Assembly: GCA_051362555.1 (NCBI GenBank) | Contig: CM120640.1 | Location: 32,569,967 to 32,633,966 of the forward strand | Source: Lingula anatina | Lineage: Eukaryota > Animalia > Brachiopoda | DNA: 64,000 nt | Reading direction: 5' to 3' | Part shown: in pieces, positions 6,010 through 28,510 of the stretch | Numbering within the stretch: the stretch's first letter is position 1 | How the letters are laid out: every line of letters starts with the position of its first letter | Made by a program: the position numbers and the translations under genes | Notes under the pieces: generated by a model | Told to the model about the DNA's origin: nothing | Seen by the model: the letters and a program-made list of their open reading frames with translations, nothing else | Databases searched by the model: none

Positions 6010-6213
6010 ATGTCTTGCTGCAACTCCACCCCAGACAACACTATCATAGATGATGTGAAGGAATACTATGGCAAACGCTTGAGGCAGTCAGCAGACCTCC
6101 AAACTGGCGCCTGCACCACTGGCAGTGCACCACCAAAATATGTCCGGGAAACACTCGGTCTTATCCATGAAGAGGTGGTATCCAGGCAAGTTATATTGAA
6201 GAGTGGCATATTA

Positions 6214-6255
<42 letters not shown>

Positions 6256-6770
6256 AATTTATATAAAAATTATGGAATATTATTATGAAATATGTTTTAT
6301 GAAAAAATTCTCTAAAGATGTGGTATTGCTATGGATTGTAATCTGTAGGTAGTTTCATTGGAATATTGAAATGTTTACTGGGGTAGCGCTAACACTCGCC
6401 AATTTAGCCAAATGCTAAAACTGACTTCAATTGGCTAAAGAAAAAGGGCTTGATTTGACATGTTTTAGCCAAATTATAACCATTTTGGTAACAAATTGAC
6501 AAAAATGTGGTGATTTGGCTAAGCAAAAAAAATTGCTAGCGCTACCCCAGGTTTACCTGCTTGACATACAGTATGACATCATAAAATTTTAATGTAGATT
6601 TGTGGTTTGTTTATTGTGAAACCAACTTGTAATTTATCATGTCACACCTTGTGAAGAGATAATTTGGTATTTTATAAGTACAGCATTAAATTGTTTTCAA
6701 GGGGCTGTTTTTGCTGATATTGTCCTCTTGTCATTTTGTATAACACATTCATGAGCATGTCCCCTGTGCG

Positions 6771-6809
<39 letters not shown>

Positions 6810-7327
6810 GCATTTTATGTGACTACATATATTCTTGAGCTTAAAAATATGCTTAGGTTAAATCAGGGCAGGATGTTAACTTAGAGTTGCCTACACCATG
6901 AGATTAAAATATACAAATTTGCAGATGTTCTTAAAAGGTGATTGAAATGTTGTTTACTGTTGACAGGTACTATGGATGTGGTCTTGTGATCCCACAGTGT
7001 TTGACTGACATGAAGGTTTTGGACCTTGGTAGTGGCTCAGGACGGGATGTCTATGCTCTCAGCAAGCTAGTGGGAAAGAATGGCCATGTGACTGGAGTAG
7101 ACATGACAGATGAACAGGTTCTTTTCTAATTTTTAGTCATTTTCTCATTTTTAGACATTTTTAGCATTTTTTTCTTCAGTCAGTCATAAGAGAAAGGGAA
7201 GCTTCTCAAAACCTTCTTCAGGATAACAACTTCTTCAGGTCTGTAACTAGCATTTTGAAAGGTTTTAATTTTTTTTTCTGAAAAAGAAAAACTTTTTTAC
7301 CCCCTCAGTTGACCAAGCTTGAGAAAT

Positions 7328-7380
<53 letters not shown>

Positions 7381-10300
7381 CAGACTATGAGTGGTTATTT
7401 CTAACCCTCGACCATTTTGCCAATGGGTTTGTCTGAAATTCCCCCTATCTTAAATCTTTAGTGCAGATGAACAGCAAAATAAAAATCATTACTGCAAAAA
7501 AAAACTGTATGGTTAGCAAGGGGGTTGAACAAAATATTCATTGGTGGTAGGTGAATCTTGTCAAATTGTCTTTTAGTATGTATAGAAAAGAAATGCACTC
7601 AAAATAATACATGTATGTGAACAAAGTAACTACATGTACATGTACATATCTTGATTTTCTTTGTTTTGAAATGTGCCCTTAAAATGTGCTACAGGTGCTA
7701 GGTTATATTGAATATCCAATTAAGGTGACATTTGGTGAACCACCTGATGCACATTAAAATCGTGGCACTCAATAGCTCAGCATCTGTGCCGTGTTTTATG
7801 GCTACATTATGGAAGCCATAAGTATTTACTCCATGCACATCTTAATAGTTTGGGGTGCTCTTCTTGTCTTGACATACAAAAAAGTGAAAATGTTAAGATT
7901 TAACTATCTCTTAGGGTACTTCCATTTTTTGAAACCATACTACAGGTCTGTATAAAAAGATTTGATAATTTTTTATTTTGTTTCTTAAAGATTTTATTTA
8001 TGTGTTACACAGTCAGATGGTAATTCAGTCACATAAATGTTCCATTTAATGTGTTTAAATGCTTGCAGTATGAATGATGACGCCATTGTTTACTCATTTT
8101 TTACTCTTTTGTAGCTCGAAGTTGCTAGAAAGTACATCACTTATCATGCAGAGAAATTTGGCTATGAGAAACCCAATGTCGCATTTGTCCAAGGATACAT
8201 TGAAAAACTGCTTGAGTTGGGAATTCCAGAGGGAACCTTTGACATCATAGTGTAAATACATTTGTAAGAAATATGTACATATAAGTTGTTTGAAGACTTG
8301 TTATATCACAGATTACTATAAGTATATGTTTAAGATATTTGGCAAAAGCTGTTTTCAGTTGATATAAAAATACATGACATGAAAGAGGATTGAAATGTGA
8401 AAATATTTTGATAAATTATTACATGGTGATTTATGTCATTACATTTACATATATATAGTTGCCTACTAGTACTTGAATGTTGTACTCAAAGCTTTTCCTT
8501 GTCAGCTCCAATTGTGTGGTGAATTTATCACCTGATAAAAAAGCAGTTCTACAGGGAGCATACTCATTACTGAAGGTAATAAGTAAACCAACACAATGAG
8601 AGACAAAACCATCAGGTTTAAATTGAATAACACATCCTTTTGCAATTTGAAAAAAATCAGGGAGCATGGCCTTTCATCAATACCATTTTTAAAGTTTTTT
8701 TTAAAGGATGGTCTTTTCTTGACATCTTCATGCATTTCATTACATTATTTGGTAACACTAGGTATTCAAACTTCTGTCCCTTTAGAACTTTTGTTTCTTT
8801 AATGACGAACTTTTTTTTTTCAGTCTTCAGTAATTTTAGTCTTAATACTAATATTGTGAAACCTGTTTTTTATATATATAGAACAGCAGTGGTCACATAA
8901 TTATGCTGTTGTCGCACATATGGTAAACATAATGAGTTTTAAACTGATTTGCAGTCCTTGTGACCTTGCATTGACCCCTTGTGACCTTGAATTAACCCCT
9001 TGAATATGTTTATTGTTTGTAGGAAGGTGGAGAACTCTACTTCAGTGATGTGTATGCAGACAGCAACCTACCAGACACGATTCGAAAGCACAAGGTGTTA
9101 TGGGGTATGATGGTATTTTATTATTTACGCCCATACAGATTAATTTACAAAAGGAGAGTATTAATCATTATAACATTTAGCATATTTTAGCAAGTCTGTA
9201 CCTAGAAGTGTGTTGGCTGAAAATTAATTTCAGCAGTTTATGATGGATTTGACTGGGCATATGGTAGAGTCTTTTGGTTGAGAACATTTTAGTTATTAAG
9301 CCAAAAGTGAAAAGACTAGTAGCAACCTAGAACCATAAGAAACCAGTTTATATTTTATGCAAAACTTTCTCACACGAAATTTTTTTATTTCAAAATGACA
9401 GAAATTTGCTATAGGCAAATGATCAAAGACATTTGAGTAATTGATTGCACTGTGCACATTAACTTGATCTTTTAGGTGAATGTATAGCTGGTGCCCTCTG
9501 GTGGCAGGATCTAGTGAAGATAGCAGAAGAAGTTGGTTTTACCACAACACGTCTTGTACATGCCACACCCTTGCCCATTAACAATGATGAATTGCAGAAA
9601 GTTGTCGGTATGTCAGATTACAGATATCAGTCAGTTTTCAAAATTTAGATGAAAATGTGTGTTTATGGATCTTCAGATTGTTTGCACTTCAGGGATCACA
9701 GACTGGGGTAGCGCTAGCAATTTTTTTCGCTTAGCCAAAACACCACATTTTTGTCAATTTCTTTAAAAAATTGTTATAATTTGGCTAAAACATGTCAAAT
9801 CAAGCCCTTTTTCTTTAGCCAATTTAAGTCAGTTTTAGCATTTGGCTAAATTGGCGAGTGTTAGCGCTACCCCAGACAGATGTCTTACTTTCAAAAATGC
9901 AAATTGCATCTTACAGTACAGTATATAGTGTTTAGTATAGTCAGGTTTCATTGAGTGTGGGAAAAAACTTGCGCAGTATTGGTTAAGTAAATGAATATAT
10001 CATCCTCCTTGCATACAATTATGTCTGGCTGCTACTTAAAACAACACACATTCGAGCTTAAGTCACCTTTATTCCTACACCTCTAAAACTACTGAACAAA
10101 GGCACAAGATACATGTAATAGTAGTACAATTAAAAGGCCCAGTGTCTTTAGCACGATAACTTCCAGAGGGGGAGGAAAAGAAAGAAAAAAAAAATTATAC
10201 AGTTAACACATTGCAAAGTTCATATAATCTACGATGAGCTCCGATGGCTTGCTGCTGCCGCTGTGCAGTTTAAAGCTGTGAGTGACCGTTGGGCAGTTTC

Positions 10301-11473
10301 ACGTGACCAAATATCCAAACGAGGCAGCTGATTTGATTGGACTGGCCACTGGTCAGTAACACGTGACCACTGCATGTTAGAACAAAGAGGATGCAGGGAT
10401 AAAGGTCCCTATGCAGCCCTCCTGTGTGAGTTTTAAATACCATTTAGTTTAAATGGACACAATTATTTCTGGCATATATTTCCAGAGGGTCACCAGTTTG
10501 TGTCTGCTGAGTATCGTCTGTTCAAGCTTCCAGCCAAGCCCAGCAGTCCATGCCAGGTTATATATAAGGGTGGTGTGTTAGGAAGTGAAGAGACTTTCCA
10601 GTTGGACTACAGAAGACAGTTCAAGGTATTTATGTTTATTTTCCTTCTGTACTGTAATTTTTAAGAAACTATTATAATCTTATAATCTAATTTTTCTTAT
10701 TTTTAGATACCAGTTAAATTATGAAATATGTAAAAGCAATTTTTTCACTTGAGATTTCAGGCCAGACATATCGTATCTGATTTTTTAAAAACTTTTATTT
10801 ACTTATTTTTTTCTTGAGGGGGGATTTACAGTTGGACTCTTTGTTAATCTCTTTGACATATGTATGTTGTAGCTATTCCACTTTCATCCTTCCCATTAAG
10901 TTTTTTTATAGAAACCATCTTGTCCCTGTTTTCCGTGTCCATCCAAAATTTAGACTTGCAGTTTTTTGCTCATTTCAGAAAAATGAACCTGTGACTGTGG
11001 ATGAACAGACTGCAAGCATTCTTCAGAACACAAGATTTGCAGATTGGTTCAGTTTTCAACCCCTACCTGACAACCAGACGCAGGAAATGGACAAGGTGAT
11101 CAATTACTCTGTCTGCCATCAATTCTATAATGAAATATTTACATTTTAATAAGCTAATCAAGACATTCAGCCACAATGCATCAGTGCATCTTTTATTTTT
11201 TCTGTGATTTGATTTCTTTCTTTCTATACTTTTTCAATATAATCCAGCAGTTCATAAGTGTGTGTGTGTGTGTTCAAATAAAGTACTAGTATCCGTACGT
11301 ACAATATTAAGCTTTAGCAAAGATTTATTCGTTAACAGTGTATCTACTTTCAGGAGAACTGTCTGGACCCATTTCTCTATATCTCTACCAAGGGTGTCAA
11401 GGCACCTAGTGGTGGGTGCTGTGGGCCTTCCAAGAAGAGTGACAAATGTGCAGAGGTCAAAAAATGCTGTTGA
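6010..11473 (+). CDS. AS3MT: Arsenite S-adenosylmethionine methyltransferase, canonical copy A (374 aa, 9 coding exons)
   Basis: Exons 6010-6185 (GC donor), 6967-7117, 8115-8251, 8506-8575, 9023-9104, 9476-9607, 10486-10625, 10979-11095 and 11354-11473, 1125 nt in frame. Motifs LQTGAC35, RYYGC63G, LDLGSGSGRD, GVDMTDEQL, SNC158VVNL, GGELYFSDVY, LWGEC208IAGAL; C-terminus GGCCG...KKCC*. Confidence 0.95.
6378..6550 (+). mobile_element. 173-bp MITE in AS3MT-A intron 1
   Basis: TIR CTGGGGTAGCGCTA...TAGCGCTACCCCAG with 5-bp TSD GTTTA. A ~95% identical inverted copy lies at 9703-9875. Confidence 0.85.
6767..6808. repeat. (GC)n(AC)n microsatellite
   Basis: gcgcgcgcgcgc followed by an (ac)n run. Confidence 0.85.
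7330..7379. repeat. (TA)n microsatellite
   Basis: Uninterrupted TA run in AS3MT-A intron 2. Confidence 0.9.
9703..9875 (-). mobile_element. 173-bp MITE in AS3MT-A intron 6 (inverted copy of 6378-6550)
   Basis: Same TIRs, 5-bp TSD ACAGA. Its reverse complement aligns to 6378-6550 with about 8 mismatches. Confidence 0.85.
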
Positions 11474-12884: not shown

Positions 12885-15800
12885 TTAGTCTGCCTCAGCA
12901 GAAGGGCATCCACCATTTGGTGCCTTGATGTCCTTGGTAGCGATATACAGAAATGGATCCAAACTGCCGTCCTAAAAGTAGACAGTTTGTAAAACATTTA
13001 CACTTGATTGAACTATTGGTGTAACCTTGAACGAATGATATGATATTGTCAGTCTCAATGATATCCTGATCATTTAAATCTGATTAGCATGGGTCGTATA
13101 CATTGGTTCAGTCATCTGACTACCAGTTGTTTCAGTCATCTGACTACCATCTGTAACGTTACGTTATGGTTGCAATTTAAATTGAGACATATTAGTGAGT
13201 CAAGGTCATGAAATAATGCCGTTTGTGTTGAAAGACCTATATCATTATTTGTCATTAGAAAATGCTTACTGCTCCTTTCTTAATTTCAACATCTGTAGAC
13301 GACCTTGAAAGCCAATGGGCACCTCAACTACCAGTATAGACACCTTCGCATGTCTCGTGAGAAAATGTTAATCTTCAAGGAGGGCAACTCATACGCAAAG
13401 ACACTAGCAGCGGTTTCCACAGATGATATGTTGGGAAAACAGAACACCTTTATGATTTGTTTTTTAGATCAACAGATATTTGGACCCGCGAGTCTCTGCT
13501 TTATCGATCTGTTGATTCCTCATAGTGTACTATTGCAATCTTTTAATGCTTCAAACCAATGAACAATTGGGCTATCTACACGCATGATTTCATTAATGAT
13601 CGTACGACTTTGCGTAATTGAACAAAAAAAATTATCTTACCTTGTCTACTTCCTGCGTCTGGTTGTCAGGAAGGGGGTTAAAGATGAACCAATCTGCAAA
13701 CCTGGTGTTCTGAAGAATGTTTGCTGTCTGCTCATCAACATTGACAGGCTCATTTTTCTACAAAGAAAGAAAGAATAACATCTAAAAATCTGAAATTCCA
13801 CCCCAGTAGTTGCCGATTAAACTGAAATTTCAAAACTGCAAAATTCAAATAGTTATTATGGCGCTCACTGTATTCAATTTAATGAATTCAGCAGTAGATA
13901 AAAAACACTTAGAATATATACTTTGGTTGACAGAAAATGAATATCAGATATCATACTATATAGCGAATAACGCCTAAAGCAATCAGAGTTGGGCGAATTA
14001 TAAATTACTCACAGTGTCGGTACTTTTTATTTGATTGCTCCTGTTCTCATAAAAAAATGTGGGTACTTATGTTTCCTCAAGTTTGCGAAGGTTAGACTCT
14101 GATTATGATGGGTTAAAACATACTGTATAATCCTCAACTTATAGTCTGAATTCAACAAACATTTATTCGTAAACGATGCCACAAACTTCATATAAGAAAC
14201 TGTCAATTTTGATTGTCAAAAGTTGGTGCGACTATCTCTTGATCTTGGGTGTTTATTATACAAATGGTGCCAACATTGCCAATTGTGGTTTGACTGAATG
14301 CCCCGTCAAGAAACTGGTGTACGGGAACACTCAAAAGTAGACAAACTGGTTCTTTACCATCCATGTGTAATGGATTTGGCCACCATGCCGTAAGACACAC
14401 CCACACAGATGTTGGTCTTGTTATCTTGCAATTTATGGTATTACTGGTGATAATGTTGGATGCTGAATTACATCTCCATGGGAACACATCACTCATTGTA
14501 AAGCAATGCCATATCCAGTACGAGTAAATTATTTTAATTACAGTGTTCCACGTAACTTTTAGAATCGAAACCTAACCTGAATACCAACCTACTCAAAACC
14601 TGTGTTGCGTAAAGAGTTATCTCAATAATTACCGTCAGTACCTACACACAATGGACAATAGAAGTGTCACGTACCCCTACTGAACCAATGCTTTGGGGGA
14701 GATAAATGACTGTGGAATGATATGCACCTGGTATCATTTTATTAACATCAAATTTCACAAAATAAAATAAAATAAAATAAAATAAAATAAAATAAAAACA
14801 CAAAATGTAGGCCATGCATTATAACTACTCAAGATCTGCCTACTTTGATTATTGATTACTTGATTATTATTTGATTACTCTGATTCAGGGGGTGACACTT
14901 CTATTGTCCATTGTGTGTAGCTTTCTTCATCTAGTGGTTTACCACAGTGATAACAGTAACAAAAGACGGTTTGGTGTAAACAAGGCAGCAAAGCTGTCAA
15001 ATGTACAGACAAAAAAATAGAAAATAAAGATGCAAAAATAGGTCATTTTGTCAATTTTGATGCAATAATAAATAATGCTTATAATAGCGCAGTCAGTCAA
15101 CACTGAATTTTAATCATGCACAACTGGTAACATGGTGTTTAGACCAGTAAAGTTTAATATTAATAAAAATGAAAATTGATTCAATCAGAGTCGCGGGCTT
15201 AAGCACGCAACTCGTAATTTGTTTTGTTATAGTGAAATATGAGGACAACGGTCTGGAGCTTTCGAACGTTTATTCACCAACTATCTCTTCATACAGCTTC
15301 ACACAAATTTATACTCAATTTTTTCCGTACTGATCATGTATTTACTTGTTTTCTTTTCCATTGTCTTTGCGTGATTACAAAATTTTTTCCCCCATGCAAC
15401 ATTTCCTTATTAGGTAATCCCTAAGAGACTTGTTTTCAATTAAAGATATCTAAAATATTATTTGGATTACTCATGCTTAGACCTTATCTGAAACTCAGTT
15501 ATCATGCAATAAACAGTGGATCAAAATTAAAGGGATAATAACTCTTCGTATGAGGTCTATATTTCACAATAAAAACATTGTGAATAACTCATAGAAATAT
15601 CTATTCTGTTTTACGTCAAAAACGGCAATTATAGCTATTATTCTGATATCTGAGCTTGTCTTCAGATCACGTGACCTCCATTTATTGCTATACTATGTTA
15701 TAATCTCTTAAGAGATTTTAACGAAAAACCAAACTTAAAAAAAAAAAAAACAGGGACTAACTTTGAATGTAAAAATAGATTCATTAACCATTGGTAATTA

Positions 15801-18800
15801 TGGGAAAATTGTTGTTTACTTCAGGAAAATTCATTTTTTGGCCAAAACGAAGAGTTATTATCCCTTTAAAATATGTTATGAAATTATCCAATCACATTAA
15901 CTGTTACTGACTTTGACCTTTGTCATCTTTTCCTGACACTAAAAACATGTTCTACACTTGTTGACTCCAGGGGCGTAACCAGACCTTTAAAAATTGTACG
16001 CACAGATTTTTAAAATTCCCAGCAAAATGTAGACTAACGCAAGAGATGAAGGACACCGTAATTACAGCATATGTACCACACATCGCAGCTTAATTTCCAT
16101 TAATAATAACATCATTATTTAGTCGGAAATTTTCTCGCAATTGAAAAAGTTTCAATATTCCTATTACCCAGTTATATTTATTTAAAAGGAGGCTAGCTTT
16201 GCATATGATGTTGAACCCCCTTCGAATAATCCTGGATCCACCTCTGAGTTGAACTAACATACAGTTTCATTCACCTTACATGTGGATGCATGGCTCCCAA
16301 AAACAACCAATTGTACGACACGACAGAGCTCTGATACATCTTAGTTTATTATTTGTTTGTAAAAATTGCTCATGTCACCCTGTTAGTTTGGAGGGGTAAG
16401 CTGGGTCAAGTCCATGTCAAAATTCTTTGAAGCTTTGCAGGAGAAATTCTTCCTTTGTTTCTCTAGCTCCTTCTTAAACCTGGTGTCCAGATTTTATCTA
16501 GTGCCCCCAGGGTTGCAGGAGCTGCTGTTTGAAAGAGGTAAAGGTAAAGGAAGTTTCAGTTAGATGGAGGATTAAGATAGGACTTGTTCAGGTTACAGGC
16601 ATTGTTTACCTCAGTTTGCAAGACGAGGGGGGGGGGGGTCAGAACAATTGTGCCTTTAGAATTGATACAGATGACTTTAATAAGCAGAGGATTTTCTTTT
16701 ATATTCCGTGAAAAATAAAATAATATCATGGTTGGCCAAAAAATTGTACGCACAGTGCATCCGTGCGTATGCCTAGTTACGCCCATGGACTCTTGGTGAA
16801 ACTTAACTCCCTCTCAATAACTCTCTATCATTTTACTCTTTTGATTCCGCTTTAATTGTTATCTGTAATTAGTGAAAGCGTAAGTCATTCGCTTTACAAC
16901 AATTTCAATAGAAGTAAGATATCTCTTATCTAACGTTAATAGACTCTTTTTTCCTTTATCTCATCTTCTATAATTGTAGCATATTCACAGTAAAGATAAA
17001 TGTCTGTCACGCCAAGTTTAAGTATAAAATCGGGCTACGACCTGACAATAAAGGAGTTTTGATTTTGGTAACTAAACGGTGGTGTTGTGTTACTTTTCTC
17101 TCTGGGCATAACCCAAGTCAGGAATCGTGTACCGTACCTAGAATCTTCCAGCATAGGATTAGAGTCCCTAGCGTACAGATTATACCCGTGGTATATCCAA
17201 GAACCTAGTACAATGGTCAGTAACAGGAGCGGATCCAGGGATATTTTCTGACAGTATTCCAAAGTACTAGTATCTTTGTTGATCCATCCTCCAATAGACC
17301 CAGAAAAACCCAGAAAATGGTCTCAATCCACCCCTTCAATGAGATTACAGTTTCAAGACCATGAGAGTTCAAATTCACATAATGAAAGTCCCAATATTTG
17401 AAAAAATGATGACAGTGCATAAAGTAATATTACATGATGCTTAAAGACATAAATACCAATACAACTGCTTATGTGGAAATACAGAAAATGTGCAGAGCCT
17501 CAGGTGTATCACAGGGGACATTTTGGTCTGAGTTACTTCTCCAGCAGGTAACACAACAGCAGTGATATGTTTTCCAGAGATCAACTACAAACTGACTGAT
17601 CTCTACGTTTATTTCTCTGGCTGAGAGATCTGGAGTCTCCTAAGACAGCAGGGACAATCCAGCTATCGGTTCAACTGACCAAACTCACTCTGATCAGCTC
17701 TGATCTCCAATCTCTGATTACAATACAAGTTCTTCTTCTTATATACTAATACACACAAAATGCATTACAGTGAATCCTAAAACAAGTCAGAAATATTGAA
17801 GCCAATTAACAGAATTAAGACATATTAATTACTAGTGACTTTAACATAATTAAATTCAGACTGCTTTAAACTTTAACTTGGAGATGAAGCTGTAAATAAA
17901 GTTATTAAATCCTTTTAAAACTGAAAACATCCTTTAAAACTTGGTTACAGTTCTTTCCAATGAACAAAATACATTAACAGATTCATGTAATATCATCTTT
18001 TTAATTTGATTTCAAATGTGAAGGTTTCTAAAATGAAGTTTGGTCGTGAAATCACCACTATGACAGGTGGATGGGAGTTCAAGGTCACATCATAAAAAAT
18101 TTTACATAAAACAAAACAATCAATTTACTGTCATTTTTATATGACCAACTGAGAAAAATGTTGCCTAAGGAAAAATACCAATAGAATAATTTAAAATGTC
18201 CAATTTGCTCCATTCTGAGATTCTTAACTTAGTGAAAGATTGAATCTGACAAACTGCAATGATATGAGTTCATTTCCATTTTTGATACTTTATTACACAA
18301 TACACGATAACAGGTTTACTGTCAATTTTATATAATCAACTACCAATTTTGTTAAGAAGCAGAAAATGTCAAAACAACACTTTTACATATCTAATTAGTT
18401 CTATAATGAGACTCTTAACATGCCTAAGAATAAAAATCTAAAGAAAAACCACTTATAATACTAAAAAAGGCATAACTTCATCAAAACTTACTAATCAAGT
18501 TTATTTTCAAATGTGGATCTGTATATACTAGTCAGACTGATCACTCCTGTGAGTTGCAAGACAAAGTGCCGATCGGTTTTCCTTAAAATGCATTATCAGT
18601 TTTGCATATATGCAGAAAAAAGCAAAAAAACAGTATAACTTTTGTGAAAATGGTCCTATCAAGCTGATTTTCAAACTTGATCTGCATATCATGAATATTC
18701 TTCAGTTCTGTAAGTTTTGAACCAAAAGGTAAAATGGTTTTCCACTTATCGTGTTATTGTTGTTGCATATGATGAAAAAAGTAAGTAAGTAAGTAAATTT

Positions 18801-20820
18801 TTTTTTTTTTTTTAAGTAAATTTATTTATTAGTATCAGCATTTCATTGCACTCAGTACATTGTTAAAGGGTCTATATCTATAATAAAGGGTTTATTGTGT
18901 TCTTTGCAATATATAAGACATATATTGAATGTATATGTATAAAAGTATAAAGATGTAGTACTAAAATAGAGCTTTAAGATAAATTCTAAGTTATAAAACC
19001 AATAATGAGGTTAAAAATGGTGATTCGTTGTTATTTTCAAAAGCTAAAAGTTAATGGATAGACCTAGATCATTGACACGTATATAAACAGTATGGGATAA
19101 AAGTGTTTCTATATCTTTTTGTCCGACATTTTGGTAAAACATATCTATAAACATTCCTTAGGTCCTTTTCTATGACACGAGTGTTAGGTAAAAGATGGTT
19201 CAATCTATGTGTACACAGTTTTATCTCATTAAATAATTTTTTGCATAAGTCAGTACGCCGAGATTTCAAGGTAGGTAATTCAGTGATGTCCATTGCTTCG
19301 TTGTAAGTGAGTTCAGGGTATATAATATGAAGAGCCCTTTTTTGGATGTTCTCTAAGGCTTTAGATTGCTGTGCGGTAATTCCAGCATGCCATAGCTGAC
19401 AAGCGTACTCAAGTGTTGGTCTGAGATTGCTTTTATAAATTTGTAAGAGGTCATGTCTCGGCACCCCAGCGTGTTTGACCATGCATAAGAAATACAGTCT
19501 GGATGCAGCTTTTGAGAGAATTTTTTCTATATGTAAGTCCCATTTCAAATTAGAACTGATATGAACTCCCAGCAGTTTGGCATGTGAAACTTGTTCGATT
19601 TTTATACCATCAATTATTAGGTTATCAGGTACAGTAGGGTTTTTACTGAAACAGATAAACAGTTCAACAGTTTTTTTAGGATTGATTAGCATGTTATTTT
19701 GTTTTGTCCATTCATATAGGTTTGAGGCTGCTATGGGAAGTTTAGATTGTGTAGGTTTGGCACCTTGTTCTATTTCCCTTGGAGATGGTTGGTGAACTGT
19801 CTCATAAACTGTAGTGTCATCCACATATTTTACTGCTGGTAAAAAACATTCCATGTCATTTATCATTGTAATGAAAAGGAGAGGTCCTAATTTTGTACCC
19901 TGGGGCACGCCCCCATGAATATGGCACCATTGTGACATTACTGGTCCACACTTGATCCGTTGCTGTCTATTTAGTAAAAAGGCATGGACCCATCTGATTA
20001 ATACTGGAGGTACTCCATAGCTGCAAAGCTTGCCTAGCAAAATATTGTGGTCTATTAAATCAAACGCTTTTCTAAAATCAAGTAATAAAACCCGAGACTG
20101 TGCCCCATGAGTGTCACTGGCCTTGGCCCAGGTGTCAAATAGCTCGATTAAGGCCATTGTTGTGGAGGAACCTTTAACATTGCCAAACTGATCTTTCTTA
20201 ATATGTGGTCCTAGTATCTCCCACAGCCATGTAAAAATGAATGTGAAAAGTGAAAAAACAGCATAATTTTTATAACAAGGCAGCAAAGCTGTCAAATGTA
20301 CAGACAAAAACCAGAAAATAAAAACGCAGGAAATAGGATACTGTCAATTCTGATGAACTAATGTATTATGCTTACTGTAACTGCATAGCCAACATCAAAA
20401 TCTTATTCTGCATAACATTGGATTAGGATGAAAGTAAAATGTGTATCAAGCATTAGACTAAGTTCCCATACCTAGATCAATCTAACAGGATCAATCCAAC
20501 TCCAAGGGGTTTCTCACTAAATTGCTTTCAGTTTGATAGTCTTAGGATTCTGGCATGCCAGTTTCAGTAGGCGTGACAGACAACTAAGCCACTTACATTG
20601 ATTGCAATTTAGCGAGAATTCCCATGGAGATAGATCGATCCACAGTTAGCGTGATAGGGTCTGGAAATAGTCCCTAAGGTGTCAGGCTGATAAGAGTTAA
20701 ACTTTGGAAATGCCAGAATGAGGTACAGTGAAAATTACACACAAAAAAAATTGCTTAAACTCATTTTCAAGTTGTGACTTATCACTCCCATCTGCCAGGA
20801 GCCCTGTACTCTTACTTTGT

Positions 20821-20891
<71 letters not shown>

Positions 20892-23800
20892 AATTTTTTT
20901 TTTTATTGCCTGTATGTCAATCTTAAGAATCATTCTTGTAACTTAACAAAATACAGAAAATGTAACAAAGTAAGAGTACAGGGCTCCTGGCAGATGGGAG
21001 TGATAAGTCACAACTTGAAAATGCCAGTATAGCACTCTATAAACCTGCATTGCCTCCAAACAGAAAACAATCACACTGGTTTTCAAACACAAGCTGCGCA
21101 CTTCTGTCTTATGAAACTTTTCACTAAGTTTCAGTATCGTAAGTAACATGGTTTTCCCTTAATCGCTATCCTGGCAGCAGTGTCCAAAATAGGGTTTTCT
21201 TCAACTTTCATGCAATAAAACATAATACTTAACAGCATTATGACCATCAAATTTTTTATAAAAAAATAAAAGTATCATGAATATTTAGAAAATGTGATTT
21301 GGGAAGGTCTTCAAGGCCATGGAAGTTCAGAGTCACACTTTCAAAATGCCAAAATGTAAACAAGAGATAACTGTACTGAAATGATTTTCTTTCCATTTTC
21401 AACACCTTTTTTAAAACAAAATGATCAATAAACTGTCATTTTTAAATGTTCAACTAGGAAAATTGTTGACATAGGAAAAATATCAATAGAACAATTTTCA
21501 ATGTCCAATTTGCTCCATTTGCAGATGCTGAACATAGTGAATGATTAAATCTGACAAACTGCAATGATGAGTTCCTTTCCATTTATGATACTTTATTACA
21601 CAATGCACAATATTATAACAGGTTTACCGTCATTTTTATATAATCAACAAACAATATTGTTAAGAAGCAGAAAATGTCAAAACAACACTTTTACATATCT
21701 TATTAGTTCCATAATGAGACTGTTAACATGCCTAAGAATTAAATCTGAAGAAATAACAATTATATACAAAAATACAGAAAATGCACAGCACTTCTGGTGG
21801 ATGGGAGTATAAAATCACATCTTGAAGGTGCTAGTGTTTGAAAAATTTTAAATAAAACGTAAAAAAATACAATAAAGCTGCTATTCAAACTTTTAATCTA
21901 GCTGTATTAACTTGATATTAATAACCCCACCAAGTTTGAGAAAAATAAAGCACTGATATTCATCTATAGCATGTTGGCATAACACATTCTTTTTGTTGTA
22001 AATTTATTTGCAATGTTAAACACCATTTATCTGCACAATTATCACCAAATCCCAATTTTGTGACACAGTTAAGAGAGCTAAACCTATGGGACTTTACAGG
22101 GAAATCTCAAGGAGTGTATTATGTAATCTCATTTAATGACCAATTGAAAATTAATGAGTAGGCAAGTGACTTTATAGACCTTAATTTAATTAGTGATCAC
22201 CCAAAGGACAATTTTATAGACTGCCATCCATACAGTACCATCATATAGCACAAAGGTGTTGCATACATGCTGAAAAAAGTGAAAAAACAGCATTACTTCC
22301 CTAAAAATGACCCGATCATGCTGATTTTCAAACTTGACCTGCGTATTATGAATATTCATTAGTTCTGCAAGTTTCAAACCAAAAGGTAAAATGGTTTTCC
22401 ACTTATCATGTTATCAGTGTTGCATATATGCTGAAAAAAGTGAAAAACAGCATAACTTCCCTAAAAATGACCCAATCATACTGATTTTCAAACTTGACCT
22501 GCGTATTATGAATATTCATCAGTTCTGTAAGTTTGAAACCAAAAGGTAAAAAGGTTATTCACTTATCGTGTTATCGGTGTTATAATAATGCAAAAAAAAG
22601 TGAAAAAACAGCATAACTACCCTAAAAATGACCCGATCATGCTGATTTTCAAACTTGACCTGCGTAATATGAATATTCATTAGTTCTGCAAATTTCAAGC
22701 CAAAAGGTAAAATGATTTTTCACTTATCATGTTATCAGTGTTGCATATATGGTGAAAAAAGTGAAAAACAGCATAACTTCCCTAAAAATGACCCGATCAT
22801 GCTGATTTTCGAACTTGACTTGCGTAATATGAATATTCATCAGTTTTGTAAGTTTCAAGGGAAAAGGTAAAATGGTTTTCCACTTATCTTGTTTTCGGTG
22901 CTGCATATATGCTGAAACAAGACGGCACTGTTCTGCAATGGGTTTACTTCCATTTTTAAAACACTTTTTTAACATAAAACAAAATAAACAGTTTTCTACC
23001 ATTTGTATATGATCAACTAAGAAAATTGATGAGATGGGAAAAATATCAATAGAACAGTGTTAAATGTCCAATTTCCTCCATTCTGAGATAATGAATATAG
23101 TAGATGATTGAATCTGACAAACTCCAATGATATTTGTTTATTTCCATTTTTGACACTTTATAACATAATACACAATAACAAGTTTACCATCATTTTTACA
23201 TAATCAACTAACAATGTTATTAAGATGCAGGAAATGTCAAACAAACACTTTTACGTATCTTATTAGTTCAATAATGAGACTGTTAACATGCCTAACAATT
23301 GAATCTGAGGAAATGTGAAAAAACAGCATAACTTCTAAAAGAATGGCCCGATTATGCTGATTTTGGAACTCAACCTGCATTCTAGTTAGTTTGACTACTC
23401 CTGTGAGTATAATGACAATTGGCCTATCTGTTTTTCTTATATTGTGTTATTAGCGTTGCATATATGTTGAAAGAAGTGAAAAAACAGCATAACTTCCCTA
23501 AAAATGGCCCGATCATGCTGATTTTTTAACTTTATCTGCGTATTATGAATATTCATCAGTTCTGTAAGTTTCAAGCCAAAAGGTAAAATGGTTTTCCATT
23601 TATGGTGTTATCGGTGCTGCATATATGCTGAAAAAAGAGAAAAAATAGCCTAAATTCACTAAAAATGACCCGATCATGCTGATTTTCGAACTTGACCTGC
23701 GTAATATGAATATTCATTAGTTCTGCAAATTTCAAGCCAAAAGGTAAAATGATTTTTCACTTATCGTGTTATCGGTGTTGCATATATGGTGAAAAAGTGA

Positions 23801-26800
23801 AAAAACAGCATAAATTCCCTATAAGTGACCCCATCATGCTGATTTTCGAACTTGACCTGCGTATTACGAATATTCATCAGTTCTGTAAGTTTCAAGCCAA
23901 AAGAAAAAACAGTTTTCCACTTATCATGTTATCGGTAAAAGTGCATGACGACGGCGACGACAGACGCAGATGATGGCTATATGTACAGACACATCTGTGT
24001 CTGTACATAAAAATGAGTTAAAAATCGATGAAAACAGTTCAACGTATCGTTATTAAGAAAAGCATCAGTTTGCCTATGGAATCCACCAATTATGTCTGAA
24101 ATTATAGGATTAATAAGAATCTTGCTGGTCCAGTTAGTCCACTTGAGGTTTTTCAGTAGTTTTATCGTAAAACACATTCATTTTAACGTCAACTCACTTT
24201 CATGCAGAGCATTGACTTCTAATGCATACAAACCAGAAGAAGATAATTTTGACACGCTGAAGCATCCATCTATGTAGATCTACTGGTTGTCTTCAAAAAT
24301 TTTATTACAAACCATGCCATATAACCAAACTGTTTGTTTGTCTACCTTACCTTTTCAATATATATTCGACATTTATTCTCCCTCCAAAGGAAAATATTTA
24401 AACAATTTTCAGTCAATGTGTCCAAAATTTTGAGACAAAAACGATTGCTATGTTTAATTACATATTGAAATATTATACATACAAGTATTCCATTCAAATC
24501 GCCTCGAGTATAAGACAGACGTAAATAAACACTCGTACCTTAAACTGTCTTCTGTAGTCCAACTGGAAAGTCTCTTCACTTCCTAACACACCACCCTTAT
24601 ATATAACCTGGCATGGACTGCTGGGCTTGGCTGGAAGCTTGAACAGGCGATACTCAGCAGACACATACTGGTGGCCCTCTGGAAATGTATCCCAGAAATT
24701 GGTATAAGTAGCTATTTTGCATAGATCCAAACACATACGGTAAAATATGTAATTCTGTTTTTATTTTTTATCTTTGTATATTTTTCAATCAACCTTATTC
24801 ATTCCATTTTCATTTTCTTTTTTTGAAATGTGGATTTTCCTAGATTATTTCATGCACATCCAATCAACCCTGGGATATATTCAACGTACCCACAAGCTTT
24901 TTTAATTCATTGTTGGTTATAGGGAATTGTGTGGCATTGACAAGTCGTGGGGTTGCAAAACCGACATTTTCTGCTATCTTGATTAAGTCCTGCCACCAGA
25001 GGGCTCCTCCAAGACCTTCACCTGAAAATGAAATTCGTGACAGAAAGAGATATCTTGTCCCCGAAACTGATTTAATTCTATGTTTGGTAATGGAATGTGA
25101 ATGTCAGTTTGATTTGTAATGATTGCATCATGGATGAAAATTGATAAACAACAGGCATGGGACTGTGTTAAAAGATAAATTTTTGTTTTTCATATATATT
25201 TCTGCTGATAGGCATTAAAATGATAAAGCGGAGAATCAAAACTACCCTTATGATAGACTATGAAAAAAGCTGTAAATAATGCTGATTCACAGAAAAAAAT
25301 CATTCAGTGAGACCTCACTTCATAAACATGAACATTTTGTACCAAGTAACTGGGGTAAGCTGTTTTTATCAATTTGTTTAGGCAAACCATTGATAACGAT
25401 AAAAAAAAAGTTATATGCTCTATGTTCCTTTGTGCCAAAATCTCAATATAATATTACCCTACAATATATACACGTGTCAAGAAAAACAGTGCAGATGCTT
25501 TTGTCTCCTCTTCCATGGTTCTTATTTTGAATAAATGGTGCATGTTTTCTTTTGTCCCAAGAGTCATCTAATTGCCTTATTAGGTACAGGGACATGAGCT
25601 GAATAAATAATTGTGTTTTGCAAAAATCTCCTCATCTCTACATGTAGATTCGCTTATGGTTTAGCTACAAACAAATGCATCCCATACCCCATAGAACCTT
25701 TAGTCTTCTTATCTTTTCTGGAAGGTCACTGTCTGCGTAAACATCACTGAAGTATAGTTCACCTCCTTCCTGAAATAATAATAGTAATTCTCAAGAAAGT
25801 CACACCAAACCACTCACAGACAGGTGTAAATAACAGAGGCAAAACTACAAATGCTCTGACCCATGGATATGTATAGACGACCTTGGCTGACATAACATTA
25901 TGTTAACATTGACAGACCCAGAATTGTATTCAGACTGGCATGGCCCCATACTTTCAAAACAGGTTTAACAGGTGGCCCTAGGATACGGGGGAAATGCAAA
26001 TCTCCTCTTGAGAAAAAAGTGAAGACTTTTTTATTCTATAGAACAACTGTTAAGTCACATTCAACTGGAATATTGCCATTGCCTTACCTTCAGTAGTGAA
26101 TATGCTCCTTGGAGAACGGCTTTTTTATCTGTTGATAAATTGACAACGCAGTTGGATCTATTAAGAAAAAAATTTACAGTGATGCAAAGCATGCCAAGCA
26201 ATTCAATAAATGTATAGAATAATCAATGAAATGTTGACAGTAATCGTGCTTAAATCTTTTCTGGATATATATATCTATGGATTGATTGATTGATTCAGAT
26301 ATTGCTTTCTTGCTTTCTTTCAAAATACCTTCAGATCAACTTTACTGATTATTTTTTACTTACACTATGATGTCAAAAGTTCCCTCTGGAATCCCCAACT
26401 CAAGCAACTTTTCAATGTATCCTTGGACAAATGCAACATTTGGCTTCTCATAGCCAAATTTATCCGCATGATAATTCATGTATTTTCTAGCAACATCCAG
26501 CTAGAACCAAAAAAATACCTATAGCATCATCAGATCATTATATAATCCATTATTTTTTATATTTAAAGACCTTCATTAAATTTTATGCATAAAAAATATA
26601 GATATTGCAAATGTGTTATATATATGACTGCAACTATGAATGTCACACTGGAACTTAAAAATCGCCAAAAACAGACCTGTTCATCTGTCATGTCTACTCC
26701 AGTCACATGGCCATTCTTTCCCACTAGCTTGCTGAGAGCATAGACATCCCGTCCTGAGCCACTGCCAAGGTCCAAAATCTTCATGTCAGTCAAACACTGT

Positions 26801-28510
26801 GGGATCACAAGACCACACCCATAGTACCTGACAACAGTAGAAAAAATAGAGTGCCCATCGTGTGTCTTAAAAATCTATACATTGTAAAAGAAAATGGAAC
26901 ATCAATGAAACCTAAGAGAAAAATGAAGACTTACACAGGTGCTCATCAGATAAGCAACAACTTTTTCAAAACCTTCTAGTATCTAGCATTTGGAATGTTT
27001 GTGGGAATGTGCAATTTTTATTTAACATACTAGATATTTTACTAAAATTTGATCTTTATACCGAGGGATTCAATAGTAAGAATGATTCTTTTATATAGTG
27101 GTACCAAAATGTGCAAAATCATGAGGCTTAAAGTATGCTCACACAGCAAAAGGTACCTTGATAACAGCTTGTTATCGAAAAATTAAGTCAAACCATCTCT
27201 AAATTGATTCCAATTCCAATTCCAAAGATGGATCCAGATTATAAGTAGTTAACCATTAATGAGAAGACCAATAGCAGGGGTACTTTCACTGTCTTTAGAC
27301 TACAACTTTCTTGAAAAGATTTAACAAAAGTACCCATGAAACCTTCCAGTACGTGTGCTTTATATGGTGAGCCCAGTCTGGTTTTCATAAGTAGCACCCC
27401 CTCTGCATAGTTTTCTCAGTCGGATAGTGAATAGTGATTGCATGTTTCGACTTTATTGCCACAAAGTTAAAACATACAGCTACTGAACAAATTTTGATTT
27501 GCTCAAATACCTGATTTTCATGGAAAATTGAAAAATAACGTGTTGTTAAAATGTTTAAGCATCAGTATATAATTTGAAAGATATAACTTATAAATCTTTC
27601 AGTTTCTTATGAAAGGATTATTGATTATTATTTTACCAATTTAATCATTTATTTTTCACTTAATTGTTACCATTTATCATTTCATCCTATGATAATGATT
27701 TGTATAGTAAAGTCTACTGAAGATTCCATGGTCTTGAGACCCTTAAGAAAAATGTCATCATCATTATTATTATTATTATTACATTGTATTATCAAAAGCG
27801 TAATACAAATTATTCGTCCAAGCTTTAAAGGGTGGTGCTACATTCCTGACACGCATCCACTTTGCACTGGGGAATGTCTCTCTTGCGTCATTATATTTTA
27901 TCAAATTGTAATTAAATCTTTAAAATTCTTGAAATTGTCCTGTTTTCACATTTGTAGCACAAAAGGCACATGAGTCTGTTTTTAATGTTCTACATTAGTT
28001 GACAACATTTTCACCAGACTGGCGTAATGTTGCAATTTTGGTAAATAGCCGAGAACTTTGGTTCCCAAACTTCTTTATGATCAGTATGGTGTCTCATTTA
28101 TTTGGGAATTTGACATGAATGTCCATTCACACAGAATACGTTAATTTTGACAGTTTGTACAACACCCTGCTTGAAATCCGAAGTCGAGAAAATGTATGGG
28201 GTTTGGGGTTTCACTAAAAGAAAATAAATTTACTATAATTCGAAATTTGGGTCCGTTTCTGTGGAAGAGTAATAAGAGGCTTGTAAAATTGGTAATAACC
28301 TGTCTTTACCGTTATATTATTTTAGACGACTCACTTTGAAACCACCTCCTTGTGAATAAGATCGATGGCGTCCTGGGCATATTTTGGAGGTCGGCTGCCA
28401 GAGCTGCAAGCGCCAGTCTTGAGATCTTCTGATTTGGTTAACTGTTTCCCATAGAATTCCTTAACACCATCTATGATCGCTTTGCTATCGGTAGGTTTGG
28501 AGAAGGACAT
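12885..28510 (-). CDS. AS3MT: AS3MT paralog B, cysteine-depleted, with Gly at the catalytic Cys206-equivalent (363 aa, 9 coding exons)
   Basis: Exons (minus) 28510-28335, 26827-26677, 26500-26364, 26157-26088, 25769-25688, 25021-24890, 24678-24539, 13757-13641 and 12971-12885. Exon lengths and phases match copy A for exons 1-8; all introns are GT-AG; there are no internal stops. Sequence runs MSFSKPTDS...KTGAC, YYGCG, LDLGSGSGRD, SNCVVNL, LWGEGLGGALWW ...GGCPSAEAD*. Confidence 0.92.
14645..14917. mobile_element. Tc1/mariner-like MITE
   Basis: TIR CACACAATGGACAATAGAAGTGTCAC / GTGACACTTCTATTGTCCATTGTGTG, flanked by TA. Contains (AAAAT)n. Confidence 0.7.
15531..15865. mobile_element. Kolobok-like MITE (TTAA target)
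   Basis: TTAA|AGGGATAATAACTCTTCGT...ACGAAGAGTTATTATCCCT|TTAA. Confidence 0.7.
15968..16787. mobile_element. Non-autonomous TIR element
   Basis: CAGGGGCGTAAC...GTTACGCCCATG with 5-bp TSD GACTC. The subterminal motif AAATTGTACGCACAG appears at both ends. Confidence 0.7.
18781..20232 (-). mobile_element. 5'-truncated non-LTR retrotransposon (CR1/L2-group LINE) with intact RT C-terminal ORF
   Basis: ORF 20307-19069 carries the RT motifs QFG, LDFRKAFD, GVPQGTKLGP, YVDD and the C-terminal HRLNHLLP/RTKRYRNTFIP. The 3' UTR ends in AATAAA, poly(A) and (TTAC)n at ~18781-18830. Inserted inside a satellite unit (GATGAAAAAA | GTGAAAAAACAGCATAA). Confidence 0.9.
19069..20232 (-). CDS. Reverse transcriptase domain of the LINE (N-terminally truncated, no endonuclease)
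   Basis: RT motifs as above. The first ~25 residues of the called ORF derive from the flanking repeat. Confidence 0.75.
   Translation of the reverse strand, partial: TWLWEILGPHIKKDQFGNVKGSSTTMALIELFDTWAKASDTHGAQSRVLLLDFRKAFDLIDHNILLGKLCSYGVPPVLIRWVHAFLLNRQQRIKCGPVMSQWCHIHGGVPQGTKLGPLLFITMINDMECFLPAVKYVDDTTVYETVHQPSPREIEQGAKPTQSKLPIAASNLYEWTKQNNMLINPKKTVELFICFSKNPTVPDNLIIDGIKIEQVSHAKLLGVHISSNLKWDLHIEKILSKAASRLYFLCMVKHAGVPRHDLLQIYKSNLRPTLEYACQLWHAGITAQQSKALENIQKRALHIIYPELTYNEAMDITELPTLKSRRTDLCKKLFNEIKLCTHRLNHLLPNTRVIEKDLRNVYRYVLPKCRTKRYRNTFIPYCLYTCQ
20762..21023. repeat. Perfect 59-bp inverted repeat enclosing a (TA)n microsatellite
   Basis: 20762-20820 is the exact reverse complement of 20965-21023. 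(TA)n lies at ~20824-20888. Confidence 0.85.
22260..23935. repeat. ~160-bp tandem satellite arrays (about 4 + 4 units)
   Basis: Unit GTGAAAAAACAGCATAACTTCCCTAAAAATGACCCGATCATGCTGATTTTCAAACTTGACCTGCG...GCATATATGCTGAAAAAA. Units start at ~22280, 22440, 22600, 22761 and again in 23315-23935. More units lie at ~18470-18780. Confidence 0.9.

Follow-up and report, generated by a model that had tools for sequence, protein, structure and literature searches.

Within a 64,000-nucleotide stretch of the Lingula anatina genome (contig CM120640.1; hereafter, the window), two genes of the arsenic methyltransferase family AS3MT/ArsM lie tail to tail, copy A on the plus strand and copy B on the minus strand, with their stop codons 1.4 kb apart. 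We found that copy B is a real variant of this known family, under purifying selection, in which a cysteine of the arsenic-binding pair is replaced by glycine at position 208. As judged from alignments and trees, this Cys-to-Gly change arose repeatedly and independently in other lineages, beside canonical copies. Reading published mutant data against this pattern, we give about an even chance to copy B being a late-step methyltransferase, which would receive dimethylated As(III) from copy A and methylate it a third and perhaps a fourth time.

Copy B as an intact and selected gene

Assembly of the exons by coordinate agreed with a preliminary description of this DNA, according to which copy B has kept nine exons, its splice sites, its reading frame and its S-adenosylmethionine (SAM)-binding motifs: all eight introns are GT-AG, and exons 1 to 8 match those of copy A in length and phase (Table 1). 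The assembled exons also reproduced the reported GGT at codon 208 of B as opposed to TGT in A, the totals of 14 Cys in A and 6 in B (at 35, 63, 70, 158, 272 and 357), and the retention of C35, C63 and C158. The spliced product of B is letter for letter the database protein P0002, labelled by its source as arsenite methyltransferase isoform X1 of Lingula anatina, while copy A is an allele of the database protein P0003, and blastn within the window gave no AS3MT copy besides these two. As separate observations on copy A, its intron 1 is GC-AG (GC donor at 6186-6187) where the corresponding donor of B is GT, and its codon 230 (9547-9549, plus strand) encodes Thr in place of the Pro found in B and in 118 of 118 homologs.

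Copy B had also been described as losing its cysteines in one direction, which may not hold for C338 and C4 of copy A. A Cys at the former position occurs in none of 118 homologs and at the latter in ~1% of them, a distribution suggesting that both may be gains in A rather than losses in B. Nor does the loss of terminal Cys clusters mark the variant, since the Gly copies of ray and frog still carry the C-terminal cluster.

An assembly error at codon 208 was ruled out by DNA from two further samples, as one contig of sample X6 and both haplotype contigs of sample X7 cover the codon and show no difference there, upholding GGT. The RNA-versus-reference differences that were listed (40 of 636 rows) include none at codon 208, and GGT rests on DNA. 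Transcription was assessed in six RNA runs, with ~6% of the reads sampled per run and 25% for X18. In X15, the junctions of B were covered by 28 reads (exons 6-7), 47 reads (exons 7-8, confirming splicing across the 10,781-nt intron) and 60 reads (exons 8-9), compared with 86 and 108 reads for the last two junctions of A. Copy A junctions were spliced in all four of X12, X13, X15 and X18, and X12, X13 and X18 gave no B junctions, though exon 8-9 of A yielded 18-26 reads in them; X16 held a trace of B (depth of at most 2) and X17 no B reads. Two kinds of RNA joints connect the copies. Joint 9021/26364, present in four of four runs, links the end of exon 3, placed on B as the exon 3 of A was outside the mapped stretch, to exon 5 of A and likely reflects skipping of A's 70-nt exon 4, which would shift the frame; joint 9607/24678 links exon 6 of A to exon 7 of B and likely stems from A alleles with a converted exon 7 closer to that of B.

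Identity between the copies reaches 98% in exon 2 and 97% in exon 7, whereas the other collinear exons are 72-90% identical, and synonymous differences number 5 of 68 in exons 2 and 7 versus 86.5 of 179 in the unconverted ones (p 4e-10). The sequences thus point to a likely recent homogenization of exons 2 and 7 by gene conversion, with the exons around the arsenic site spared. One X7 haplotype of B also carries two adjacent synonymous bases matching A at 24986-24987, at a distance of nine to ten codons from the Gly codon, which may be a micro-conversion; codon 208 of this haplotype remains GGT.

Over the seven unconverted exons, the nonsynonymous and synonymous divergences between A and B were dN 0.130 and dS 0.774 (dN/dS 0.17). 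Assigning all replacements to B gave an upper bound for its dN/dS of 0.34 (bootstrap 0.23-0.49; a pairwise count and not a branch model), bearing out the expectation of a value below 1; in only one of 5000 neutral simulations did no stop codon arise, and six of the seven coding polymorphisms in exons 5-6 of B, taken from the X6 and X7 contigs, are synonymous and one is a replacement. At the protein level B evolved ~5 times faster than A (branch lengths 0.12 and 0.024). Copy B is an intact, expressed gene under purifying selection, and its open frame, intact splice sites, spliced RNA, dN/dS of at most 0.34 and excess of synonymous polymorphism agree with the preliminary view that it is not decaying; a broken frame or splicing, a dN/dS near 1 and a missing transcript, as expected of a pseudogene, were not what we found.

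Copy B is 48-57% identical to the listed animal AS3MTs, which places it within the family by homology. Its AlphaFold2 model, built from a 40-sequence alignment (mean predicted local distance difference test score 89.8), retrieved AS3MT/ArsM structures as all 13 top fold matches, the best being human AS3MT 8xt7 (root-mean-square deviation 1.9), and ESM Atlas matches comprised generic methyltransferase and ArsM clusters only. The class I SAM motif (residues 78-86, G102 and D104) is intact and invariant across the alignment. Alignment with the Protein Data Bank (PDB) chains, of which the human one begins past the first catalytic Cys, equated residue 208 with CmArsM Cys224 and the matching human Cys, and residues 35, 63 and 158 with the other three catalytic cysteines. 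Thus the N-terminal pair (human Cys32/Cys61; CmArsM Cys44/Cys72) is kept in B as C35 and C63, whereas the arsenic-binding pair (human Cys156/Cys206; CmArsM Cys174/Cys224) is broken, with C158 kept and 208 being Gly. Three residues that are near-invariant in the homolog alignment are also altered, namely Y19F (Y in 118/118), P164T (116/118) and F254Y (117/118). Both copies score below the cut-off of 263 of the general NCBIfam model NF008823, and both fall short of the models for arsinothricin ArsM (NF040538; B 116 bits, cut-off 500) and arsenosugar ArsM (NF038099; B 82.5 bits, cut-off 400). By its sequence, copy B belongs within the AS3MT/ArsM family, but its classification as a canonical arsenite methyltransferase (EC 2.1.1.137) is not warranted.

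Table 1. Positions of copies A and B and their parts in the window.
Feature	Position	Strand	Remarks
Copy A, canonical four-Cys AS3MT	6010..11473	+	C35, C63, C158, C208; 9 exons, 374 aa, 14 Cys
Copy A exons	6010-6185, 6967-7117, 8115-8251, 8506-8575, 9023-9104, 9476-9607, 10486-10625, 10979-11095, 11354-11473	+	
Copy A codon 208, TGT (Cys)	9481..9483	+	Aligns with CmArsM Cys224 and the matching human AS3MT Cys
Copy B, AS3MT duplicate with C208G	12885..28510	-	9 exons, 363 aa
Copy B codon 208, GGT (Gly)	25014..25016	-	Same in one X6 contig and in both haplotype contigs of X7
Copy B exon 1 (C35; Y19F)	28335..28510	-	72% identity to A
Copy B exon 2 (C63, SAM motif)	26677..26827	-	98% identity to A; likely recent gene conversion
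Copy B exon 3	26364..26500	-	90% identity to A
Copy B exon 4 (C158 kept; P164T)	26088..26157	-	
Copy B exon 5	25688..25769	-	78% identity to A
Copy B exon 6 (G208; Q237, F238)	24890..25021	-	74% identity to A
Copy B exon 7 (F254Y)	24539..24678	-	97% identity to A; likely recent gene conversion
Copy B intron 7, 10,781 nt	13758..24538	-	Removed in RNA; reverse-transcriptase open reading frame inside
Copy B exon 8	13641..13757	-	Junctions seen in RNA
Copy B exon 9, shortened C-terminus, 1 Cys remaining	12885..12971	-	60 junction reads in X15

Several repeat-like elements also lie in the window. Intron 7 of B holds, on B's own strand, an open reading frame of 424 codons (19069-20343) with the Pfam domain RVT_1 (E 1e-19), likely a fragment of a long interspersed nuclear element. 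Introns 1 and 6 of A share an inverted 173-nt element, 95% alike (6378-6550 and 9703-9875), and a hairpin with 67-nt arms occupies 346-492; both resemble miniature inverted-repeat transposable elements.

Recurrence of the Cys-to-Gly change

Among 118 close homologs, position 208 is Cys in 116 and Gly in two, from a scallop and an electric ray, each of which has, within its own species, a Cys sister on a contig of equal length. When the set was widened to 150 representatives at 50% identity, 137 of them covered the site, with 103 Cys, 21 Gly, 7 other residues and 6 gaps; restricted to the 107 gap-free representatives with C158, the counts were 90 Cys, 15 Gly, 1 Arg and 1 misaligned. Named carriers of Gly are the frogs Rana, Lithobates and Aquarana, a sawfish, a lamprey, Nematostella, Ciona savignyi, Seison and Closterium, the animal forms being a chance sample and no census, and among bacteria two Methylosinus and one gammaproteobacterial metagenome-assembled genome (MAG). 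Two short-region protein searches for further Gly forms returned only B itself. A DNA pattern search, which accepted any codon not starting with T at the site and was blind to Ser (TCN), Tyr, Phe and Trp, matched 5 times in prokaryote genomes and 8 times in metagenomes; ten of these 13 hits resolve as ArsM, all with Gly, and the remainder are two without an ArsM match and one unresolved fragment. Five metagenome hits are near-copies of one hot-spring, Cyanidioschyzon-like gene that aligns end to end with the crystallised CmArsM (E 5e-230), carries Gly at 224 and has a stop after residue 372.

The history of the change was followed on a 44-row tree of chosen sequences (18 rows with Gly, the Cys sisters closest to them and a range of further sequences, with column 208 excluded). 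The Gly state needs 14 changes on this tree, at least 11 of them forced by well-supported branches, and its clustering is no tighter than that of shuffled labels (304 of 500 as low). A single clade of the Lingula, scallop, ray and frog Gly copies was rejected by the approximately unbiased (AU) test (p-AU 1e-31), and over residues 180-250 six of seven Gly copies are nearer to their own Cys sister than to other Gly copies, the exception being the gammaproteobacterial MAG. One ancient Gly lineage behind the animal tandem pairs is thereby ruled out by the tree and the AU test; on this comparative evidence, C-to-G at 208 arose repeatedly, independently and beside canonical copies.

Gly is one of the seven single-base replacements of the Cys codon, and an outcome of Gly in 11 of 14 events would be expected with a probability of ~1e-7 (the event counts being rough); at the non-catalytic C70 and C272, by comparison, 2 of 52 replacements are Gly, in rows that are not independent. 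Among the covered Gly rows, C35 is retained in 11 of 12, C63 in 13 of 13 and the SAM motif in 14 of 14, with an enrichment for F254Y and V188M. Other Cys patterns were also encountered: the mirror case, in which Gly replaces C158 while 208 is Cys (P0112, a coelacanth paralog, P0132 and P0155), and a distinct clade without C63, C158 and C208 (P0219, P0221 and P0241).

A canonical copy accompanies the Gly copy in the same genome in Lingula, scallop, Narcine, Pristis, two Methylosinus, the gammaproteobacterial MAG and a contig termed L001, and both forms were present in all four microbial genomes examined. In Methylosinus sp. Sm6, one strand reads arsC, arsD, arsA, acr3, ~470 bp, arsM(Cys), 154 bp, arsM(Gly), and M. 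sporium has the same tandem Cys/Gly pair. The Gly copy of the gammaproteobacterial MAG lies 3.5 kb from arsS, with the Cys copy elsewhere, and the Cys and Gly copies of L001 lie 3.5 kb apart and are 92% identical. This ArsM type occurs in 3 of 151 genomes around Methylosinus, two with Gly copies and the third with Cys only. Two side observations concern these genomes: Sm6 holds five arsM homologs, four Cys and one Gly (contigs C85, C112, C120 and C143 of assembly G002), and the two arsM of L001 (5425-9733), a contig assigned to a Bacteroidota MAG, cluster with algal-type sequences and have apparent introns, possibly reflecting eukaryotic DNA.

A proposed late step in arsenic methylation

As(III) is described as bound by three Cys ligands, monomethylarsonous acid, MAs(III), by two and dimethylarsinous acid, DMAs(III), by one; human C206S and CmArsM C224A are inactive on As(III) and MAs(III), whereas loss of an N-terminal Cys leaves the second methylation step intact (PMC3877260). 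The step from dimethyl- to trimethylarsenic (DMAs to TMAs) is described as rate-limiting (PMC6950371). Since C206S and C224A are inactive on the first two substrates, copy B is likely unable to perform steps one and two, and the step remaining to it would be one on arsenic that already has two As-C bonds. The preliminary description had offered as a precedent microbial ArsMs that have fewer Cys and are restricted to MAs(III), which does not hold: the MAs(III)-active mutants lack N-terminal Cys and keep the very pair that is broken in B (PMC3877260, PMC6950371), so that a later step must begin at dimethylated arsenic, and an MAs(III)-only role for B is ruled out by the mutant data (PMC3877260). 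Its broader suggestion, that B may do a different job, for instance a later step of a two-enzyme relay with A, draws support from the recurrent Cys/Gly pairs of other lineages, while the function itself we only infer.

In the mechanism that we propose, C158 would be the sole thiol holding a substrate with two As-C bonds; Gly, as opposed to Ser, would remove the whole side chain and leave room for the extra methyl; and C35/C63 would re-reduce the product, recycling the enzyme. The predicted products are trimethylarsine or its oxide (TMAO), with tetramethylarsonium, or trimethylarsonio compounds made from dimethylarsino-sugars, as further possibilities. Such a late-step activity would account for Gly as the replacement, for the keeping of the other three Cys and for the co-occurrence with a canonical copy.

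A number of points weigh against this proposal. CmArsM8 reportedly methylates As(III), which would contradict it if CmArsM8 is the Gly form. B RNA was strong in one of six runs, a trace in one and absent from four runs that express A. In the seven sister pairs, secondary changes are only partly common (F254Y in 2, P164T in 2, V188 changed in 4), and C158 is replaced in 6 of 96 rows with C208, as well as in coelacanth P0112, so that either Cys can be lost in duplicates. The gap of ~470 bp past acr3 in Sm6 makes co-transcription of the arsM pair with the ars genes no more than possible, and the M. sporium pair has a TonB-receptor gene and no ars genes in the 4 kb upstream, with the contig end downstream. 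The literature search found no assay of any Gly form and no arsenic speciation data for Lingula. Moreover, in a published scheme DMAs(III) departs from Cys224, the residue lost in B (PMC6138428), and canonical enzymes alone yield some TMAs or TMAO, making a second enzyme unneeded (PMC6138428, PMC12608789).

Four alternatives were set against the late-step proposal and are taken here from the least improbable down. That B has shifted to a substrate other than arsenic, methylating a thiol, a selenol, an antimony species or a small amine via an opened pocket, would suit its ~5-fold faster evolution, its changed near-invariant residues (Y19F, P164T and F254Y) and an expression that is restricted and uncoupled from A. 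We consider it unlikely, as the Gly forms retain C35, C63 and C158, the bacterial ones adjoin canonical arsM, ars genes or arsS, and the same change across very different organisms fits a substrate made by the parent enzyme. Rather unlikely, too, is that B still methylates As(III) or MAs(III) through another Cys pair (e.g., C63/C158) with a different product mix or rate: the inactivity of C206S and C224A on both substrates speaks against it (PMC3877260), and the one-Cys arsenite methyltransferase known in Thermus, which would otherwise favor it along with the three catalytic Cys left in B, is distant (25-32% identity to other ArsMs), with histidines proposed in its case (PMC8649762). It also draws on CmArsM7 and CmArsM8, both described as active (PMC9812998), given that a C224G relative of CmArsM exists and is maybe CmArsM8.

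We find it unlikely that B is a selected pseudoenzyme with no net methyl transfer, serving to bind or pass along methylated arsenicals, to buffer SAM or to modulate A. All 14 covered Gly rows have intact SAM motifs, and a dead binder would need no Gly over Ser, Arg or Tyr, even though a catalytically essential residue is lost and Gly copies usually accompany a canonical one. That B is a pseudogene at an early stage, its frame preserved by gene conversion from A, is very improbable and largely refuted. The recent homogenization of exons 2 and 7 (p 4e-10) and the missing B RNA in four of six runs would fit it, but the dN/dS of 0.17 in unconverted exons with its bound of 0.34 for B, the 1 in 5000 stop-free neutral runs, the accurate splicing, the 6:1 ratio of synonymous to replacement polymorphisms and the recurrence of the change across lineages do not.

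Extending the late-step proposal from copy B to the whole set, we raise tentatively, as the less probable case, that Cys-to-Gly ArsM duplicates may be overlooked, repeatedly evolved finishing enzymes that convert dimethylated arsenic to tri- and tetramethyl species, one base change away from the canonical enzyme. If so, this set would supply the missing host enzymes that, in aquatic animals, form tetramethylarsonium and the trimethylarsonio group of arsenobetaine-type compounds. A late-step methylase would bear on arsenic speciation in seafood and on arsenic volatilization. High tetramethylarsonium levels in frogs found no confirmation in the literature search. High levels are described for some clams, gastropods and annelids, with the origin only postulated (PMC8419240).

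The literature searched contained no natural Cys-to-Gly ArsM, though much ArsM enzymology lies outside its coverage and an earlier notice is possible; Gly rows may be present in the alignments of PMC5398495 (S7 Fig) and PMC5552862 (Fig S7). AS3MT duplication has been called rare, in a study whose alignment includes Lingula (PMC5398495), and a family survey gave Cys72, Cys174 and Cys224 as conserved in all retrieved sequences (PMC5552862). A recurrent Gly variant beside canonical copies contradicts both the rarity of duplication and the universal conservation of Cys224. Databases label the Gly forms arsenite methyltransferases, though that reaction is likely beyond them. The Gly and Cys copies constitute ready test pairs differing at one catalytic codon, including intronless bacterial, algal-type and CmArsM-like genes.

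Comparison with known enzymes

Human AS3MT (8xt7) and CmArsM (4fr0, 4fsd and 6cx6) are homologous to copy B (E 5e-101 and 1e-74, respectively) and resemble it in the fold of its model, in the SAM motifs and in three of the four catalytic Cys; they differ in that their Cys206 or Cys224 is Gly in B, breaking the pair required for As(III) and MAs(III) methylation (PMC3877260). The laboratory mutants C206S (human) and C224A (CmArsM, PDB 5jx7) lack a Cys at the same position as B, but carry Ser or Ala and are dead on As(III) and MAs(III), whereas the Gly of B occurs naturally, in a gene under purifying selection. The ArsM of Bacillus sp. CX-1 and TtArsM of Thermus are, like B, natural ArsMs with fewer than four Cys, and the pattern of B is the reverse of that of these reduced-Cys microbial enzymes, with the N-terminal pair kept and the last Cys lost. 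In the CX-1 enzyme, Cys 145 and 195 presumably form the C-terminal pair. These are the two conserved Cys on which that enzyme depends (PMC6950371), and TtArsM, a distant enzyme, has a single Cys and is proposed to use His ligands (PMC8649762). That an ArsM can work after another enzyme, on an arsenical alkylated beforehand, has precedents in the arsinothricin enzyme BgArsM and in arsenosugar ArsM with ArsS (PMC8552651); unlike B, BgArsM has all four Cys, and B lies far under the NCBIfam cut-offs of these families.

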